Below are positions 48,831 through 60,082 of a stretch of DNA of 64,000 nucleotides, piece by piece. The notes below the pieces were generated by a model. That model saw only the letters and a program-made list of their open reading frames with translations, ran no database searches and was not told the DNA's origin. The number at the start of each line of letters is the position of its first letter. The first letter of the stretch is position 1. The stretch spans positions 1-64,000 of the forward strand of contig CAVTDB010000009.1 of NCBI GenBank assembly GCA_963733375.1, given 5' to 3'. Made by a program: the position numbers and the translations under genes. This DNA comes from Nitrospirota bacterium (lineage in GTDB: Bacteria > Nitrospirota > JACRHJ01).

Positions 48831-50157
48831 AAAGCCTCCAGTAATCCCCGCGCCGTCGGCTCGATCATTATAATTTTCAGCCCCGTCTCGCGCTCCACGT
48901 CCTCCGGCGTCAGGTCGTCTAAGAACACGCCCGCCCCGTCGCGCATGGTGACGGACGGAATAATCGCCGCATCGGCTTTTTTGCCTTTCAGGGCGGCTAT
49001 TATATCATTGCCGGACAGAAGCCCGGTAACGGTTACTTTTTCGCCAAAGAGATTGTTCTTCACCGGCAGGACGCGAAGTTTCAGGTTTTCGACTTTAGCC
49101 TCAATCTCTTTCGCTATTTCTTTCAGTATCGGCTCAAATGATTTCCCCGTTATCAGTATAAGGTTTTCAGCCCCGTTTCTCTTTGCTACTTTCTCTTTCC
49201 GCAAAGAGAAAGTAGAGGTTTTCATAGCCTTTTTGAACTCGTCCAGGAAATCCCGCACCAGCCCCACGCCGTTGTCGATCTGCGGATAGCCGTCATATTC
49301 TTTAACCGGCGGAAAGTCGCGCCCGGCCTTTAGATAAAACTCATCCGACGGATACACGAAACTGACGCCGAACTTGCGCCGGTATTTTTTCCGGAGAGGC
49401 TCCAGCCCGTCGAGGAGCTTCAGGCTCTCATTTTTTGTGAATAGCCCGGAGCGGGTACAGTTTTTCCCGGTGCTTCGTAAGCCCCACCGGGACGACGGCA
49501 AGGGACTGCACCTTCGGATAAAATGCCGCCAGGTCCTCCGTCGTCTTTATAAGCGCCGCGCCGTCGTTTATTCCCGGCGCGACCACCGCCTGGGTATGGA
49601 GCACGATGCCGCTGTCCGTAAGTTTTTTTATGCCCTCCAAAATCGAAGGCGCCTTGCAGTTGCCCAGAAGAAACCGGCGAAGGCTGTCGTCGGTTGCAGT
49701 GGACGGAGACATATAAAGGCGAGAGGCGTTCCCGGATTATCCGGGCAAAATCCTCGTCCTTCATCGTGGTCATCGTAACGTAGTTGCCGTACAGGAAGCT
49801 GTGGCGGTAGTCCTCGTCCTTCACGTACAGGCTGCGCCTAAGCCCGGCGGGCATCTGCTCCACGAAGCAGAACACGCAGTGGTTGTTGCAGGCGCGCACC
49901 CTCATCGGCGGCGCGATTATTCCAAGGTCGTCATCCTCGTCCTTTTCTATCTCTATCTCGGCTATGCCGCCGGATTTTTTCTTAACCAGAAGGGTGACTT
50001 CTTCGGAGGCGATAAGGTAGCGGTACGCCAGGTAGTCCGGTACGGGAGAGGAGTTGACGGAGATTATCTCGTCGCCTACTTCCATGCCGACCTCGGAGGC
50101 TATGCCGCCCGGCTCAATGCCCGCGATTTTAAGACCTTTTAACGATATATTTTTCAT
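48827..50157 (-). CDS. DUF512 PDZ/radical-SAM-like Fe-S protein (indels)
   Basis: CNNHCVFCFVEQMP, KDEDYR.SFL.GN..T, VVPVGLTK, DEFY, YPQIDNGVG, VTVTGLL.G.D. Confidence 0.92.
49172..49219. repeat. Single unit of the hairpin repeat family, in-frame in the DUF512 gene
   Basis: Minus strand CTACTTTCTCTTT-gcgg-AAAGAGAAAGTAG followed by CAAAGAGAAACGG; translated as TSTFSLRKEKVAKRNG. Confidence 0.75.
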
Positions 50158-53306: not shown

Positions 53307-53327
53307 TATTAAAATATAACATAAACA

Positions 53328-53356
53328 AAAAAGGCAGCCGATAGGCTGCCTTTTTT
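53328..53356. terminator. Terminator after the glutamate synthase operon
   Basis: AAAAAAGGCAGCC-gata-GGCTGCCTTTTTT. Confidence 0.85.
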
Positions 53357-53374
53357 GTCCATTTGAAACTTTAA

Positions 53375-54109
53375 TTAATACGCGTACAGTCTACCGTACG
53401 GCCTGGAGGACTTCGGGTAGATCTTTATGAACTTCTCTTTCATTATCTCGGCGTAGTCGTGGCCGGTGTCTTCGCAGTACTCTTTTACGTACTTCGAAAG
53501 CTCGGCCATCTCTTCCTCGTTCGGCTCCAGTATGCCTATCTCCGCGCCGCAGTCCCTGGGGTCAACCTCGCCCCGGAGATACATCACGCCGCCGTGCATC
53601 CCGGTGCCGAGGTAGCCGCCCGGCGATGGGCTCGCCTTCTTTTCTGCCGATACCGAGCAGCACCAGCAGGCCGCCCGCCATGTACTCGCCGAAGAAGTCT
53701 CCGGCGGTCCCGCCCGCGATAATGACCGGTATCTGCGACTTGAAGCCCTTCATGTGGATGCCGACGCGGTAGCCGACGTCGCCCTTTATGTAGAGCTTGC
53801 CGCCGCGCATCCCGTAGCCCAGCACGTCTCCGGCGTTGCCGTTTATGACGATCTTGCCGTCGTTCATCGTGTTGGCGACGCCGTCCTGCGCGTTGCCGTT
53901 GACGATAAGCGTCGGGCCGTCCATGAAGGCGGCCAAGTCGTTGCCCGGCACGCCGTTAATGGTGATGGTGGCCTTGGCCCTGAGGCCGTCGGCGATGTAG
54001 CGCTGGCCGTTCACGTTATCCAGCACGACCTCTTGGCGCCCTTGTCTATCGCCTCGCGCACCCGTTCGTTAAGCTGCCGGTAGTATATGCCTTTTGCGTC
54101 GATAGTCAT
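53375..54109 (-). CDS. Split glutamate synthase GXGXG beta-helix subunit (GltB domain 3; indels)
   Basis: MTIDAKGIYYRQLN, NVNGQRYI, GVPGNDL, GNAQDGVANTM, GYRVGIHMK, GEYMAGG, GTGMHGG, RPYGRLYAY. Confidence 0.9.
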
Positions 54110-54127
54110 CTTTAGAACTCCAAAACC

Positions 54128-54216
54128 GTTCTTTTCTTTCGCGAGAAAGAAAAGAACCAAAAGAAAGCGGGACAGTTTAAAAGTTTCTTGGGCCGCCTTC
54201 TTTTCAAAGAAGGCGG
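54128..54216. repeat. Double-hairpin element, copy C (between gltB2 and gltB3)
   Basis: GTTCTTTTCTTTC-gcga-GAAAGAAAAGAAC CAAAAGAAAGCGGGACAGTTTAAAAGTTTCTTGG CCGCCTTCTTT-tc-AAAGAAGGCGG. Confidence 0.85.
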
Positions 54217-54221
54217 GATCT

Positions 54222-55721
54222 TTACTTTCCTGCGGGTTTTACTCCCAGTATTTCCAGCGTCTGCGCGTCCAGGCCCACGCCGCGGAGCCTCTCGCGGCTT
54301 CCGCGCAGGCTCTCCACGGAGTTCACGCCGAGCGCGCCCAGGAACTCCATTATCTCGTGGCCCCACGCGCGGAGCAGGTTATTGAGCCTCATCGCGCCCC
54401 ACTCCGGGTCAAGCCGGCGGGTCAGCTCCGGCTTCTGGGTGCAGATGCCCCAGGCGCAGTTGCCGGTGTAGCATTTCTGGCAGAGCGAGCAGCCCAGCGC
54501 GAGAAGCGCCGCCGTGCCTATCGCGCAGGCGTCCGCGCCGAGCGCAATGGCCTTGACCGCGTCCGCGGAGGAGCGTATGCCGCCCGCGGCGACGATCGAG
54601 GCCTGGTTCCGGATGCCTTCCTGCCGAAGCCTGTCGTCCACCGCCGCGAGCGCAAGCTCGATCGGTATGCCGACATGGTCGCTTATCTGGGTCGGGGCGG
54701 CGCCCGTGCCGCCCTTGAAGCCGTCCAGGTAGACTATGTCCGCGCCCGCCCGCACGATGCCGGTCGCGATGGCCGCGACGTTATGCACGCAGGCGATCTT
54801 CACGGAGACGGGCTTATACCCCGTCGCCTCCTTTATCGCGTAGATGAGCTGGCGGAGGTCTTCGATGGAGTAGATGTCGTGGTGCGGCGCGGGCGAGAGC
54901 GCGTCCGTGCCTAGCGGTATCATCCTGGTCTGGGAGATTTCCGCGCCTATCTTCTCGCCGGGCAGGTGCCCGCCGATGCCGGGCTTTGCGCCCTGGCCTA
55001 TCTTTATCTCCACCGCTACCCCGGCGTTCAGGTACTCGCTGTGCACGCCGAAACGCCCGGACGCGCACTGGACAATCGTCCACGGGCCGTATTCGTACAG
55101 CTCTTCATGCAGCCCGCCTTCGCCGGTGCCGTAAACAGTGCCGGATTCCTTCGCGGCCATCGCCAGCGACTTGTGGGCGTTCAGCGAAATTGCGCCAAAG
55201 GACATCGGCGCGAATATTATGGGTATCTCAAGCTTGATGTTCGGCGGGAGCTTTTCCTTCAAGCGGGGCTTGCCGTCCACCATCTCCATTTCCAGCTTGT
55301 CCGGCTTGCGGCCAAGGAACGTGCGCAGCTCCATCGGCTCGCGCAGCGGGTCGATGGAGGGGTTCGTCACCTGGCAGGCGTCCACGACCAGGTGGTCGAA
55401 GATTATCGGGTACGGCTTGTCGTTGCCCATCCCGGTAAGCAGCACGCCGCCCGTCTCCGCCTGCTTCCAGATGTTCTTCCTTATCTGGAGCGACCAGTTC
55501 GGGTGCTCCTTGTAGACGTTGGGGTTTTCGTTAATGGTGATGGCGTCTTCCGGGCACATCGCCGCGCAACGGTTGCAGGCGACGCATTTATTGCTGTCCG
55601 GGACTACCCGGTCCGAAAAGCTGTACACGCCGAAACTGCAGCTCTGGAGGCAGCGCTTGCACTTCCTGCATTTTTCCTGGTCGATTTTAACCCGGAACTC
55701 CGGGGGCATTGTCCTGTTCAC
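54222..55721 (-). CDS. Split glutamate synthase FMN subunit with an N-terminal 2x[4Fe-4S] ferredoxin domain (GltB domain 2)
   Basis: CxxCxxCxxxC twice; QVTNPSIDPLRE, MSFGAIS, GEGG, Q.ASGRFGV, EIKIGQGAKPG.GGHLPG.K, SPAPHHDIYSIEDL, Cx2Cx2Cx4C. Confidence 0.96.
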   Translation of the reverse strand: MNRTMPPEFRVKIDQEKCRKCKRCLQSCSFGVYSFSDRVVPDSNKCVACNRCAAMCPEDAITINENPNVYKEHPNWSLQIRKNIWKQAETGGVLLTGMGNDKPYPIIFDHLVVDACQVTNPSIDPLREPMELRTFLGRKPDKLEMEMVDGKPRLKEKLPPNIKLEIPIIFAPMSFGAISLNAHKSLAMAAKESGTVYGTGEGGLHEELYEYGPWTIVQCASGRFGVHSEYLNAGVAVEIKIGQGAKPGIGGHLPGEKIGAEISQTRMIPLGTDALSPAPHHDIYSIEDLRQLIYAIKEATGYKPVSVKIACVHNVAAIATGIVRAGADIVYLDGFKGGTGAAPTQISDHVGIPIELALAAVDDRLRQEGIRNQASIVAAGGIRSSADAVKAIALGADACAIGTAALLALGCSLCQKCYTGNCAWGICTQKPELTRRLDPEWGAMRLNNLLRAWGHEIMEFLGALGVNSVESLRGSRERLRGVGLDAQTLEILGVKPAGK

Positions 55722-55737
55722 CCGAACTTCCTCCAAC

Positions 55738-56867
55738 TTATATCTTTACTGAATGCCCTTGCTCCAGTCACTCGACGACTACCGGTTGTCCGGCCCTGGG
55801 AGCCCAGACTTTCTCGGGGTCGGGGCATATCTCGCGTATCGCCGATTCCTCGCTCGACATATAAACCGTCTTGCCCTTGGTGGCCGCGATGAACGGCCTG
55901 AGTTTGATCCTGTCGTTCATGCCTATAAGACCCTTGGCGTGCCCGAAGAGTATCGCGAACGGGCCGTTTAAAAGCGCCGGAGCCGTAAACCATCCTGAGC
56001 CCCTCGCAGGCCTCCCGCTCGCTCTCTTCCATCCTGTCTATGTCCTTCCAGAACGGCGCGGCCACCGCCAGGCATGCGGCGGATATCGGCAGGCCCTGGC
56101 GCCTTACCAGCAGGTCGAATATATACGTCACCACCTCGGTGTCGGTCAGGAGCGCCAGCTTGTAACCGAACATCTCGAGGTATCTTTTATTTATCCCGTA
56201 GGAAGATATCTCGCCGTTATGGACGATGGACCAGTCGAGCAGCGTGAACGGGTGCGCCCCGCCCCACCAGCCCTGGGTATTGGTCGGGAAGCGGTTGTGC
56301 GCCGTCCAGGTGTGGCCCTCGTAGTCCTCCAGCATGAAGAAGTCCGCGATGTCCTCCGGGTATCCGGCGCCTTTGAACGCGCCCATATTTTTACCGGATG
56401 AGAATACGAACGCGTTGTCTATCTTGTCGTTTATGTGCATGACGATTTTTACGATAAAATCGTCTTCCGTCATCTGCGTCCCCTTGAGGCTCTCCGGCTT
56501 TACTTTCACGAAATAACGCCGAAGCAGCGGGTGGGACGGGACTTTCTCGGTCAACTTGACCGGGATATCCTCGGTAAGGTCCACCGCGAGCGACTTTTCC
56601 AGGTAAGTCTCGGTCTCCTTCATCGCCTCTTCAAAATCCCTGGTGGGCTTGCCAGGCTCCTCGGTAAACATTATGTGCAGGGCGTAATGGTCCTTGTGCT
56701 TCGGGGTATATCCCGTACGCCGCGAACCCGCCGCCCTGGCCGTTGCCCCGGTCGTGCTGGAGCGCGATGGACTTCCTTATCGCCGCACCGGAGATGCGCT
56801 TTCCGTCCCAGTTGATTATGCCGGACAGGCCGCATCCGGAGATGTCTTTCTGCCACCAATGGTCCAT
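55738..56867 (-). CDS. Split glutamate synthase class II amidotransferase subunit (GltB domain 1; indels)
   Basis: SGCGLSG (Ntn Cys after a short propeptide), [67 protein letters not shown]. Confidence 0.93.
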
Positions 56868-56895
56868 TGTCTGTTAAACCTCCAAGAGCTAAACC

Positions 56896-56986
56896 GTTAC
56901 TTTCTTTTCGCGAGAAAAGAAAGTAACACAAAGAAAAGCGGAACAGTTTAAAAGTTTTTGGCGTTACCTTTTTCCAAAAAGGTAAC
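56896..56986. repeat. Double-hairpin element, copy D (between hdrBC and gltB1)
   Basis: GTTACTTTCTTTTC-gc-GAGAAAAGAAAGTAAC ACAAAGAAAAGCGGAACAGTTTAAAAGTTTTTGGC GTTACCTTTTT-cc-AAAAAGGTAAC. Confidence 0.85.
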
Positions 56987-56990
56987 AGGT

Positions 56991-58307
56991 TTACTTCTTT
57001 ATAAGTTTCTTCCAGTCCTCGGTCCCGGTCTTGGGCGCGTCTTTCAGGCCCAGCTTCTTCCTCTGGGCCTTGGAGGGCTCGCCTAAGCGTCCGGTCTGGT
57101 TGAACATCTCTATCGCCTTCGCGGTCGTCGGCTGTACATAGCCCTTCTGGATGGCCATCTGCTTCAACTGGTGGAACACCTTCTCCATCCCGTAGCACTG
57201 CGGGCACAGCTCAAGGCAGGTATGGCACTCGACGCACCGCCAGATGTCCGGCGACTTCAGGAGTTCGTCCAGGTCTTCCGTGAGGACTCTCTTCATCATG
57301 GAATGGAGGTTCACCCCTTCCACGGACAGCGTCACCGGGCAGTCGTTCGTGCAGGCCGCGCAGTTAACGCAGCGCTCTATGGACGCGACGTCGAAAATCG
57401 CTTTCGTCTTCGTATGCTCGCCGATATTCTTCTCCCATTTCTGTACGAACGCGGCGGTATCGATCTTGTGCATGTCGATGCCGATTTCCGCGGGAGAGAA
57501 GCCCATGGCCAGGGCTAAAAGCTCCTGGTAGGAGATTACGGGGAGGTTGTATTTTTCGCCGGAGCGGGCGAGCATGAACTGCTGCGTGTCGTACTGCGAA
57601 TAGCAGGACGGGCATACGGTGGTGATGGCGTCGGCTTCAAGGCTTTTAAGCTCCTGGAGCTTCCTTCTTAAAAGGTCCTGGCCCTCGGAGACGTTCCCCA
57701 CGTTGCTTAAACCCCCGCCGCAGCAGAGCATCTTGGTGGTATAGTTCATGCTCTTCGCGCCGATTGCGTTCACCAGCGCGTCGAACTTCACCGGCTGGAT
57801 CGGGTCGTCGAAGTTCAAGACCTTCGCCGGGCGCATCATATGGCAGCCGTAATGCACCCCTATCTTCATCCCCTTCAGGGGCTTCTTCACGTATGTCGCG
57901 ATTTTCGCCGGGGAGATGACGTCGTGGAACAGCTCCAGCATGTGGAGCACCTTGACCTTCCCCTCGTACTTCATGCCGATGGCGGCCAGCTCTTTGTTGA
58001 CCATCGCCATCAGCTTCGGAGACTTGTGGAGTTCGGCTTTTGCGCCTTTTAACGTGCCGTAACAGCCGTTGCAGGGGGTAACGAGCGGCAGGCCGGTCTT
58101 TTCCGCAAGGGCCAGGTTTCTGGCGGCGGTAATCAGCCAGAGGTCGTCCCCCATGCTCTTTACCAGCTCCTTTTCGGGGCAGCAGGTAAAGCCGTCAAGG
58201 TCCACTATATCTATTTCCATCCGCTCGGCCACCAGCCTTGCCGCCTTTTCCTGGAAGGCGAAGCGGGCGGGGATGGTGCAACCCCAGAAGAACACGTAGC
58301 TTTTCAT
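56991..58307 (-). CDS. Heterodisulfide-reductase-like HdrB-HdrC fusion
   Basis: Two CCG domains (F.GC...TCCP...PCNGCY; HYGCH...CCG...CPSC..QYD), then CVNCAACTNDCP and IWRCVECHTCLELCP. Confidence 0.9.
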   Translation of the reverse strand: MKSYVFFWGCTIPARFAFQEKAARLVAERMEIDIVDLDGFTCCPEKELVKSMGDDLWLITAARNLALAEKTGLPLVTPCNGCYGTLKGAKAELHKSPKLMAMVNKELAAIGMKYEGKVKVLHMLELFHDVISPAKIATYVKKPLKGMKIGVHYGCHMMRPAKVLNFDDPIQPVKFDALVNAIGAKSMNYTTKMLCCGGGLSNVGNVSEGQDLLRRKLQELKSLEADAITTVCPSCYSQYDTQQFMLARSGEKYNLPVISYQELLALAMGFSPAEIGIDMHKIDTAAFVQKWEKNIGEHTKTKAIFDVASIERCVNCAACTNDCPVTLSVEGVNLHSMMKRVLTEDLDELLKSPDIWRCVECHTCLELCPQCYGMEKVFHQLKQMAIQKGYVQPTTAKAIEMFNQTGRLGEPSKAQRKKLGLKDAPKTGTEDWKKLIKK

Positions 58308-58528
58308 TAAAAAATCTCCGTCAGCCTGAAACGGGCCTAAAATGCCTCCCTTAGAGGCGGATATTGATGCTATAAAAACAGCCACTTAATGTCAAGATTT
58401 TTTTCCTGGAAAAGCGGCAGAAGTTACTTTTTAGGAATTATAACTGGTATCGAACTCCAAGTCCAGCAAAAATTGTATAACCTCGGCTATTTAAAAATCA
58501 CCATAAAAAGGCTATAATATTAAAGGCT

Positions 58529-58996
58529 ATGGGTACTAAATCTGTTTTGCATAAGATGCTCGGAATATCGACCGCCGTTTTTGCCATTTTACTGGCGGAT
58601 GCGGGAAGCGCGTGGGCCGTCCAGCCGCATACGGGGCCGGAAGGTTATTACGCGCATCAGGCGGCCCATCTGCTCTTCATATGTTCGATGGTCTACCTGA
58701 TAGTCCTGCTGGGTAAGCCTGCCTTAAGGCGCCTTTCGGGTTGGCAGTATATACGCCTGGCCTCGTTTTTCTTCCTGCTTTGGAACGTGGACGCTTTTAT
58801 CGCGCATATTATGGAATGGCTTATGGTGCCGAGGGAAAAATTTATCAGCGGCTCCTGGCTGCTCGTGGAGGACCTGAAGTCGGAGGTCTATTACGTAACC
58901 CGCCTGATAGAGTACTTCTTCCTTGTGCCGGCATTTCTATTCATGGCCCTTGGGGTGAGGCGTCTCAAGGGACAGATTGAACGGGAGAAGGAATGA
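58529..58996 (+). CDS. Conserved His-containing membrane protein, translationally coupled to the sensor
   Basis: Signal peptide, Q.H.GPEG.YAHQ.AH motif, three TM segments; ATGA overlap with the next gene. Confidence 0.7.
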   Translation: MGTKSVLHKMLGISTAVFAILLADAGSAWAVQPHTGPEGYYAHQAAHLLFICSMVYLIVLLGKPALRRLSGWQYIRLASFFFLLWNVDAFIAHIMEWLMVPREKFISGSWLLVEDLKSEVYYVTRLIEYFFLVPAFLFMALGVRRLKGQIEREKE

Positions 58997-60082
58997 CAAG
59001 CCTTCGGCCGATCTGGACAATAGATATAATTTCAAACTCCGTGCTGTTGGCCATATCGATCTACCTGCTGGTGGAAACGAAAAGGATAAGGGCCATGCGT
59101 CCCCATGTCCTTTTGTGGATGTACCTGTACTGGCAGGCCGTCGCCTTGACGATATTCGTATTTTCTCACTCGGTGGCGCACATCGTCCAGCGCGTGATGG
59201 TATTAATGGGGTATCGGCCATACCTGGGAAGAAATCGCGCCTGTTACCGGCGGGATAAACACGCTCACGTTCGTGGTGGTGGCGATACTGACATTCCTCT
59301 ACCGGGACCTGGAATCGGCGAGCGAGCGGTACGGGACTCTCTCCGAGACGAAGAAGGAACTGGAGCAGTCCATGATAATGCTGCAGGAGTCCTCGGAGAA
59401 GATTGAACGGGATGCGGAGGAGATATTCCAGAAGAACCGTGAACTTTCGGCCCTTAACAGGATCGCGACAGAGATCGGCAAGTCCCTAGAACTGGACAAG
59501 GTCATGTCGGCGACGATCAGGGAGGTAAAGGACCTGGTCAAGGCGGATTTCCTGGCGGTATACCTGGTGAAAGGCGACAAGATAGTCCTGCAGGTGAGCG
59601 AAGGTCTGACCGGAAACCTCCTCGATAAGGCAGCCGTGCGGAGCGCCGATGAGCCCTGGGTCAAGAGGGAAATCCTGCAAGGCAGGGCGTTCTTCGTGCA
59701 GGAAAGCCTTTCCGAAAAAACCGGCAAGATAGATGAAGACTTCAAAAAAGGGGGCCTTCAGGCCTGGACCGCGGTACCTATAATGGCCAAGGGCAAGGTG
59801 GTCGGAGTCCTCTCGGTCGGCTCGACCAGTTTTGACGGCATCGACCAGCGGCAGATAAATACCCTCACGACTATAGGCAGTTACGTAGGCATAGTCATAG
59901 AGAACTCCATGCTCTACGAGGAGCTGAAGCAGAAAGTTGACGACCTGGAGCGGTTCAGCAGGTTCTCCGTCGGCCGGGAGATGAGGATATTGGAGATGAA
60001 GGAGAAGCTAAGCCGCCTGACGGCAAACCGCCAGGATGTTTCTTCAAAACCCGAAAAAGACGAGGCGCAGGAGCTTCCATGA
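58993..60082 (+). CDS. Membrane GAF-domain sensor-like protein with no output domain (indel ~59240)
   Basis: TM region, coiled coil, ELSALNRIA..SLEL, VPI..KGKVVGVL, IENS.LYE, ends VGREMRILEMK. Confidence 0.8.

Follow-up and report, generated by a model that had tools for sequence, protein, structure and literature searches.

Which reductant feeds the split, archaeal-type form of glutamate synthase is the question raised by a four-gene cluster in a Nitrospirota genome. Glutamate synthase is the main gate through which ammonium enters biomass, and its textbook reductants are NADPH, NADH and ferredoxin. The split archaeal-type enzyme occurs widely among anaerobes, and to our knowledge no study has settled what donates its electrons. 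The window analysed here is a stretch of 64,000 nucleotides of contig CAVTDB010000009.1 (assembly GCA_963733375.1), and its source genome (G000) comprises 2.39 Mb in 26 contigs and is 81% complete. On the minus strand, from 58307 to 53375, this window carries in reading order the genes for a fusion of HdrB-like and HdrC-like halves (HdrBC), for the glutamine amidotransferase subunit GltB1, for the flavin mononucleotide (FMN) subunit GltB2 and for the GXGXG subunit GltB3. An earlier note, made from this DNA alone, had proposed that HdrBC is the electron-input module of the synthase and is fed by a thiol carrier.

Our answer is that the products of these four genes would form a single enzyme, a glutamate synthase of the split archaeal type in which HdrBC is the electron-input subunit, and we assign this reading as a whole a probability of roughly 0.6. 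Its parts differ in strength: HdrBC is very likely a functional partner of the glutamate synthase, the odds that its donor is a thiol are about even, and a lipoyl group as the donor in this particular organism is unlikely. The fusion would stand in for the GltD, NAD(P)H flavoprotein or FrhB-like subunit of other glutamate synthases. That the four-gene unit has stayed linked in many lineages of bacteria and archaea points to an undescribed, probably thiol-driven electron feed into ammonium assimilation.

Conservation of the unit and exchange of its input genes

Linkage was surveyed in one genome per prokaryotic species, which yielded 374 candidate stretches, 345 of them encoding a relative of the fusion. 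The best 80 of these 345 loci, with up to 8 kb of flank, were then analysed by tblastn and clustering of open reading frames (ORFs). Of the 80 fusion loci, 75 contain GltB1, 67 GltB2 and 64 GltB3. The complete set of four shares a strand in 63 loci; in the other 17, the contig ends on the side where sister loci have the missing genes. The earlier note had named as its own undoing the finding that homologues of the fusion usually lie away from gltB. This objection falls away, since no fusion without GltB genes occurs among the 80 loci where flanking sequence is available (63 are complete and 17 cut by contig ends). Locus L013, a candidate for such a solitary fusion, was ruled out, as its contig ends 1.3 kb upstream, where its sisters have GltB1-3.

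The median gap from the HdrBC stop to the start of the GltB1 ORF is -11 bases, and it is at most 150 bases in 59 of 67 loci; these lengths are approximate, with ORF starts taken from the longest ORF. Gene order is HdrBC-GltB1-GltB2-GltB3 in most loci, GltB3-Lpd-HdrBC-GltB1-GltB2 in Peptococcaceae (Lpd being dihydrolipoyl dehydrogenase) and GltB1-GltB2-GltB3-...-HdrBC in other Firmicutes. The hosts span at least eight bacterial phyla, including Nitrospirota, Bacillota, Thermodesulfobacteriota, Nitrospinota, Chloroflexota, Armatimonadota and Actinomycetota, as well as the archaeal Methanosarcinales (Methanoperedens and the anaerobic methanotrophic (ANME) group ANME-2).

The gene that accompanies the split enzyme is not the same throughout Nitrospirota. 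Among 201 genomes of this phylum, 27 have a split GltB2 (counted at 60% identity or more), whereas in most of the rest the large subunit is of the classical kind, about 1500 amino acids long. The fusion is present in ten of the 12 genomes with split GltB2 in the window's own family (f1), the two misses being 65% and 75% complete, and in the single such genome of family f21; it is present in none of the five in family f2 and none of the nine in family f8. Where fusion and GltB2 share a contig (nine genomes, that of the window included), they lie within about 2.5 kb of each other, and in two further Nitrospirota genomes they are on different small contigs. In five f2/f8 loci (L117-L120 and L122), ORFs of 149-190 and 420-432 amino acids directly follow GltB2, and in the four complete loci GltB1 and GltB3 come after these two extra ORFs. 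Pfam searches on two of the loci identified the pair as a Fer4_11 iron-sulfur protein and a flavoprotein with Pyr_redox_2 and Rubredoxin_C domains, that is, an NAD(P)H-type reductase.

The f2/f8 enzyme is close to that of the window, with orthologous GltB1-3, extra redox genes in the cluster and a GltB2 that is 60-67% identical and has the same 13 cysteines. It differs in that the Fer4_11 protein and the NAD(P)H reductase stand between GltB2 and GltB1, whereas the window has a single HdrB-HdrC fusion ahead of GltB1, without a flavin or nucleotide site. The two also fall on separate sides of the GltB2 tree: in a quick, unrooted maximum-likelihood tree of 68 sequences, the 63 fusion-linked sequences, archaea included, are separated from the five Nitrospirota sequences linked to the NAD(P)H module with a support of 99 in the Shimodaira-Hasegawa-like approximate likelihood ratio test. 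The variable genes of the split enzyme look like swappable electron-input modules, and this exchange is the strongest argument for the fusion as the electron-input part.

Composition and boundaries of the cluster

The fusion gene (56991..58307, minus strand) is intact and encodes 438 amino acids, ending in a conserved basic tail. Two CCG domains (PF02754, 92 bits) occupy residues 1-265 and a 4Fe-4S dicluster domain residues 336-396, which bears out the earlier description of the order as the reverse of that in HdrD. The CCG motifs read CX31CCX35CX2C and CX39CCX35CX2C, and the ferredoxin part holds two copies of CX2CX2CX3CP. In 20 diverse homologues, 45-82% identical to the window's fusion, all cysteines of the CCG motifs (C10, C42, C43, C79, C82, C155, C195, C196, C232 and C235) and of the ferredoxin motifs (C313, C316, C319, C323, C358, C361, C364 and C368) are invariant.

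Of 8000 scored candidates, at least 1521 are relatives of the fusion at E ≤ 0.001; among the top 120, almost every protein has 436-484 amino acids (one has 379), and all 120 belong to the CCG family. Bacterial and archaeal fusions are about 50% identical. The family profile matches the solved HdrB chains 8rvu_b, 5odc_B and 7bkb_B over their full length (E 1e-86 to 4e-93) and HdrC chains over most of their length (E 5e-16 to 2e-21). An AlphaFold (AF2) model of the fusion, with a predicted local distance difference test score (pLDDT) of 86 and a predicted TM-score (pTM) of 0.80, superposes in Foldseek on HdrB chains with a TM-score of 0.90-0.92 and a root-mean-square deviation of about 2.1 Å. 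Prediction of a complex between GltB2 (A2) and the fusion (A1) gave scores of 0.12 and 0.01 against a mark of 0.32, a result that weighs neither way.

GltB1 (55768..56867, minus strand) is a class-II (Ntn) glutamine amidotransferase subunit; its fragment in the window matches GATase_2 (PF00310, E 3e-8), and the catalytic cysteine, residue 12, is kept in all 70 aligned sequences (66 of 66 linked to the fusion and four of four linked to the NAD(P)H module). GltB2 (54222..55721, minus strand) is intact, with 499 amino acids and a GTG start at 55721 as in its relatives. It combines an N-terminal 2x[4Fe-4S] ferredoxin domain, an FMN/2-oxoglutarate domain and a C-terminal CX2CX2CX4C cluster motif (in Pfam, Fer4 twice and Glu_synthase, PF01645, with 454 bits against a cut-off of 20.4), and its 13 invariant cysteines include Cys411, Cys414, Cys417 and Cys422 of the C-terminal motif. 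GltB3 (53375..54109, minus strand) is represented by a fragment that matches GXGXG (PF01493, 103.6 bits, cut-off 32.5), and the NCBIfam glutamate synthase model NF008730 gives partial matches to the cluster's subunits. Judged by these domains, GltB1, GltB2 and GltB3 are a split archaeal-type glutamate synthase of predicted activity.

Two peculiarities were seen at GltB2 genes of other loci. In a Nitrospinae metagenome-assembled genome, an extra gene of 530 amino acids (L018:9496-11088) lies between GltB2 and GltB3 of an HdrBC-type cluster and encodes a paralogue with a partial Glu_synthase FMN domain (65 bits). In L001, a long-read relative of the window, a single-base difference at the 3' end of GltB2 (region 12108) leads to a 513-residue product whose tail differs from those of L002, L003, L005, L007 and the window, probably through an assembly error in the L001 record.

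The cluster's outline agrees with the earlier account: ORF and Pfam analysis recovered four co-oriented genes in the order claimed, and Pfam revealed no GltD, HdrA, MvhD or F420-type gene in the four-gene cluster (nor, in the flanks, an HdrA partner). The divergent promoter region and strong terminator described there also have counterparts. Upstream of the fusion, two sigma-70-like sites on the minus strand (58465-58437 and 58395-58367) match 10 of 12 positions each, and a further promoter-like site on the plus strand (58490-58518) faces the divergent gene, all of these being consensus matches only. A terminator-like hairpin (53321..53362, minus strand) of 19 pairs, seven of them G-C, is followed by a T-run and lies 13 bases past the GltB3 stop. 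What the earlier account missed is that GltB1 and GltB3 are broken by four frameshifts, so that order, domains and strand stand while the genes themselves are not all open.

Inverted-repeat and blastn searches showed that two intergenic gaps hold copies of a palindromic element of about 80 nucleotides (no strand assigned), one between HdrBC and GltB1 (56891..56973), absent from L002 and L005, where the fusion and GltB1 abut, and one between GltB2 and GltB3 (54122..54202); a partial copy lies at 58409-58426. An operator or RNA element was ruled out, as the two copies have 93 and 156 blastn-short matches genome-wide, on many contigs. The element looks like a dispersed repeat of the repetitive extragenic palindromic or miniature inverted-repeat transposable element (REP/MITE) kind that inserts into intergenic spacers. 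The flanking genes, which encode HD-domain, CDP-alcohol transferase, AI-2E transporter, radical-SAM, GAF-domain, hydrolase and histidine-kinase proteins, are unrelated to redox or nitrogen metabolism.

Electron donor and rival explanations

We infer a physical complex through which electrons run from a thiol to FMN. A dithiol, most likely protein-bound dihydrolipoate, though here possibly DsrC or another thiol, would give up its electrons at the pair of non-cubane [4Fe-4S] clusters in the HdrB-like half and become a disulfide. From there the electrons would travel by way of both [4Fe-4S] clusters in the HdrC-like half to the two N-terminal [4Fe-4S] clusters of GltB2, its C-terminal cluster and FMN, which would reduce the 2-iminoglutarate formed from 2-oxoglutarate and the ammonia freed from glutamine by GltB1, with GltB3 as the structural GXGXG part. 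The HdrB-type cluster pair would work in reverse of the solved Hdr enzymes, from thiol to wire. Such donors are energetically feasible, since dihydrolipoamide (about -290 mV) comes close to NAD(P)H in reducing power, the CoM-SH/CoB-SH couple of coenzymes M and B lies at about -140 mV, and glutamine-driven reductive amination is strongly exergonic with NADPH.

Support for a thiol comes from the neighbours of the unit in other hosts. A gene for Lpd stands beside the fusion in 11 Firmicute-type loci (TIGR01350, 570 bits against a cut-off of 409), and a twelfth Lpd among the 80 loci (L040) is 6 kb off on the other strand. In ten loci, a lipoyl-domain profile detected such a domain immediately upstream of the fusion; it is encoded by a separate frame of 76-99 residues, bearing the lysine motif TSKA or TNKA, in nine of them and is fused to LipA in the other (L013). 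LipA occurs in four of the loci and a LipB/LplA-type gene in two. The Firmicute set would spell out a chain from NAD(P)H through Lpd, a lipoyl carrier and HdrBC to GltB2. A different set is found in six ANME-2/Methanosarcinales loci, where an HdrA-MvhD-type gene adjoins the unit upstream or downstream; in L062, the separate hdrB and hdrC genes beside the unit pass the NCBIfam equivalog cut-offs (454 and 201 bits), and L049 has ORFs of matching size. The ANME-2 hdrCBA set would fit regeneration of CoM-SH and CoB-SH, and both sets of neighbours fit a thiol/disulfide donor regenerated next door.

Two wider companions were tried and rejected. LipA is not universal, being present in three of three Methanoperedens genomes but in neither of two ANME-2-type genomes, and LplA/LipB-type domains do not discriminate, being present in all five of these genomes but also in 13 of 14 controls. 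If the contigs correspond to the L050 and L041 records, the lipoyl synthase of two Methanoperedens genomes (G201:C5:86300-87163 and G202:C51:80716-81594) may lie within about 10 kb of the unit. ORF families with a Toprim domain and of the TrmB regulator type recur upstream of the fusion in Methanoperedens loci and look unrelated.

The window's own genome offers several thiol-related proteins away from the cluster. It encodes two E2 lipoyl proteins of the 2-oxoacid dehydrogenase type, LipA and one LplA/LipB-type protein; no intact Lpd was found in this 81%-complete genome, where an Lpd-like gene is fragmented and below cut-off. Two DsrC genes lie on contig C26 (C26:169204 and C26:186073), and so do two GltD-family (Fer4_20) genes, one after a DsrAB-like (NIR_SIR) pair, and thus DsrL-like, the other after an NfnA-like gene, and thus NfnB-like; neither is near the cluster. 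The same region (G000:C26:176000-190000, L081) holds the DsrAB-like pair, the DsrL-like protein with a C-terminal ferredoxin domain, a rubrerythrin and the NfnA-like/NfnB-like pair. The organism is probably a sulfate or sulfite reducer or a sulfur disproportionator. Its only other CCG protein is DsrK-like and encoded beside a DsrM-like gene, and HdrA-like and MvhD-like matches occur together on contig C17, where they may be Qmo-like. A DsrC-like protein had been put forward as the donor in the earlier note; nothing beyond the presence of dsrC speaks for it. The donor here is open to a lipoyl-E2, DsrC or another thiol, each of them a candidate.

A number of observations count against our reading. 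Accessory genes adjoin the unit in only the 11 Firmicute-type loci with Lpd, L013 and six ANME-2-type loci of the 80, and no gene for a thiol carrier or disulfide reductase adjoins the unit in the window, in other Nitrospirota, in Methanoperedens or in most of the remaining loci. Searches of the 81%-complete genome revealed neither a stand-alone lipoyl carrier nor GcvH. The accessory sets imply different disulfides (lipoyl and CoM-S-S-CoB), while the identity of about 50% between fusions rather suggests one substrate. By NCBIfam the fusion is not a bona fide HdrB or HdrC, as it misses the equivalog cut-offs of TIGR03288 (HdrB, 286 against 345 bits) and TIGR03290 (HdrC, 63 against 160 bits); LutA-, SdhE-, GlcF- and GlpC-type CCG families are among its matches. 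The SdhE, LutA (LdhH/LutA), GlcF and GlpC proteins have no known thiol substrate, and the premise of the earlier note that CCG domains catalyse thiol chemistry is too strong. Finally, it is conceivable that this strain truly carries the frameshifts. Of the earlier proposal, the input role is favoured by linkage and module exchange, and a thiol donor fits the neighbours found elsewhere; beside the window's cluster there is no gene for a thiol carrier or a reductase.

One rival view is that HdrBC is a subunit of the enzyme but only an iron-sulfur adaptor, which would pass electrons from reduced ferredoxin or another low-potential protein to GltB2 without thiol chemistry, with its non-cubane clusters used as additional redox centres or for docking. 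Linkage and module exchange fit this view equally well, and it agrees with the lack of nearby thiol-related genes in most loci, that of the window included, and with the CCG families just named. Moreover, HdrC faces the ferredoxin-like domain of HdrA in solved Hdr complexes, and the N-terminal ferredoxin domain of GltB2 has weak matches to this part of HdrA profiles (E 2e-7 to 6e-6). However, GltB2 has its own 2x[4Fe-4S] entry domain, and four more clusters would be superfluous for input from ferredoxin. Across phyla, none of the ten cysteines of the two HdrB-type clusters varies, and in solved Hdr enzymes this cluster pair forms the catalytic terminus of the wire, the site of disulfide reduction, rather than its middle. 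An adaptor would also leave the Lpd, lipoyl carrier, LipA/LipB or hdrCBA genes beside the fusion in 18 loci unexplained. We regard an adaptor as unlikely, although it is the strongest competitor of a thiol-fed HdrBC.

Much less probable is that the cluster is a decaying set of pseudogenes whose frameshifts are real, with ammonium assimilated in another way. Only two of its four genes, those of the fusion and GltB2, are open in the genome's sole assembly. Compared with the relative L001, GltB1 has +1 frameshifts near 56705 and 55981, and GltB3 a -1 frameshift near 54032 and a +1 frameshift near 53618. These four single bases are the sole indels relative to L001 (96% identical) within the two coding regions, and at least two of them are at short homopolymers. 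Six relatives (L001, L002, L003, L005, L007 and L009) have intact GltB1 (371-377 amino acids) and GltB3 (244-278 amino acids), including GltB1 of 371 residues in L001, L002 and L005 and GltB3 of 244 residues in L001, L002, L003 and L005; apart from the four indels, the broken genes are 90-100% identical to these in protein sequence. Frameshifts are common across the assembly: against the Illumina-assembled L002, four of 12 shared genes are affected, with seven shifts in about 12 kb, the Lpd-like gene on contig C13 (G000:C13:45848-47139) is broken up into at least five profile matches that lie in different frames, and other examples lie at 49286-50157 and 58993-60079 of the window.

Short-read contigs of related populations point in the same direction. 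Contigs from runs X1, X2 and X4 have one base fewer than the window across the 56705 site, as does the X1 contig across the 53618 site. At 55981, X1 lacks the extra base, the sole indel listed at the exact position, while X4 is not listed as lacking it, a point in favour of real decay. GltB2 also holds the sole Glu_synthase (FMN) domain above cut-off in the 81%-complete genome, which argues against another route for ammonium. Since neighbouring genes are frameshifted too and six close relatives are intact, we read the four frameshifts as, very probably, assembly errors. Gene calls from this assembly are fragmented, and any 'pseudogene' in it needs comparison with relatives.

The linkage alone cannot separate catalysis from regulation, and HdrBC might instead be a redox switch or repair module that responds to, or restores, the thiol/disulfide balance in the cell or at a cysteine of the enzyme and thereby tunes the synthase, with the catalytic electrons coming from ferredoxin through GltB2. 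One residue fits such a role: a single cysteine of GltB3 (residue 212 in L002, about 53470 in the window) is present in 92% of 63 HdrBC-linked sequences and in none of four linked to the NAD(P)H module, and it may mark a contact or a redox-active site. Yet the GltB1, GltB2 and GltB3 alignments contain no cysteine pair specific to HdrBC-type enzymes that could be an internal disulfide substrate, a four-cluster protein of 438 amino acids would be costly as a sensor, and sister lineages replace HdrBC by an NAD(P)H reductase and a ferredoxin-like partner, a pair that supplies electrons. A switch is improbable. Least probable of all is an independent disulfide reductase that is only co-regulated with nitrogen assimilation, perhaps recycling a disulfide that arises in another process, and does not touch GltB2: other genes do lie between the fusion and GltB1-3 in L010, L011 and L017, but an HdrBC without HdrA, HdrE or another donor subunit would have no electron source of its own, the fusion was found only beside GltB genes among the 80 loci, and the four genes are always on one strand even though their order varies.

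Comparison with known systems

If HdrBC is indeed a thiol-fed input, the consequences reach beyond this locus. A conserved subunit of the HdrBC type would supply the input module so far missing for a large group of sulfate reducers, acetogen-like Firmicutes and methane-oxidising archaea, would extend the chemistry of Hdr-type non-cubane clusters from energy metabolism to biosynthesis, and would couple nitrogen assimilation to the thiol/disulfide (or lipoate) pool. In ANME and Methanoperedens, the heterodisulfide for reverse methanogenesis would arise as a by-product of glutamate formation; in bacteria, lipoate would be a diffusible protein-bound reductant beyond 2-oxoacid and glycine metabolism. 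The Firmicute clusters hold all the proposed parts in one operon (Lpd, lipoyl carrier, HdrBC and GltB1-3) and make the idea directly testable. The earlier note had known of no such enzyme class, and we likewise found no Hdr-type partner of glutamate synthase in the full-text literature, in which gene tables or supplements of papers on ANME, Methanoperedens or Peptococcaceae genomes may list the adjacency without comment.

The closest precedents for an unusual input subunit are the putative F420-dependent glutamate synthases of methanogens, FGltS(I) and FGltS(II), which were proposed on the basis of a subunit resembling FrhB and the N-terminal part of Fsr (MTH193, 'subunit 4'; PMC3448663). In another account, F420-dependent glutamate synthase 'remains to be proven' (PMC3087415), and a third FrhB group, in ANME, was later added (PMC9012536). 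The accessible portions of these three papers contain no mention of an Hdr-type partner. As far as those portions go, the likeness is that of an archaeal-type glutamate synthase with an input subunit other than GltD, inferred from gene context; the difference is that the FGltS input is an F420H2 dehydrogenase of the FrhB family, whereas that of the window is of the HdrB/HdrC type, without an F420 or flavin site.

With HdrABC (PDB 5ODC, 7BKB and 8RVU), the fusion shares complete CCG and ferredoxin motifs, both of each, as well as the HdrB profile match and a fold that superposes. It differs in its B-then-C fusion, in a cluster without HdrA (or HdrE, the partner of HdrD), in scores below the equivalog cut-offs and in an electron flow that would be the reverse of that in methanogenic Hdr. 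The bacterial host of the window should, moreover, be without CoM and CoB.

The sHdr system, in which HdrA is joined by separate HdrB1, HdrB2, HdrC1 and HdrC2 subunits, serves sulfur oxidation. This Hdr-like iron-sulfur complex is genetically tied to a small lipoate-binding protein (LbpA) and to lipoate-assembly genes (PMC6067878 and PMC11094781), and the Firmicute versions of the present cluster show, to judge from the accessible portions of these papers, the same kind of tie to lipoate. The present cluster, by contrast, lacks HdrA and pairs its Hdr-like protein with a glutamate synthase, and lipoyl-carrier and lipoate-assembly genes are absent from the window.

Compared with GltB-GltD and the ferredoxin-dependent glutamate synthase, finally, the chemistry is the same, as are the amidotransferase, FMN and GXGXG modules; GltB-GltD differs in having an adjoining GltD and an undivided large subunit, which in the present cluster is split into three genes and gains an extra 2x[4Fe-4S] domain. 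We suggest, with somewhat less than even confidence, that a thiol-dependent (dithiol:2-oxoglutarate/glutamine) enzyme would form a fourth class of glutamate synthase by donor, drawing on a dihydrolipoyl protein or, in methane-oxidising archaea, on CoM-SH and CoB-SH.

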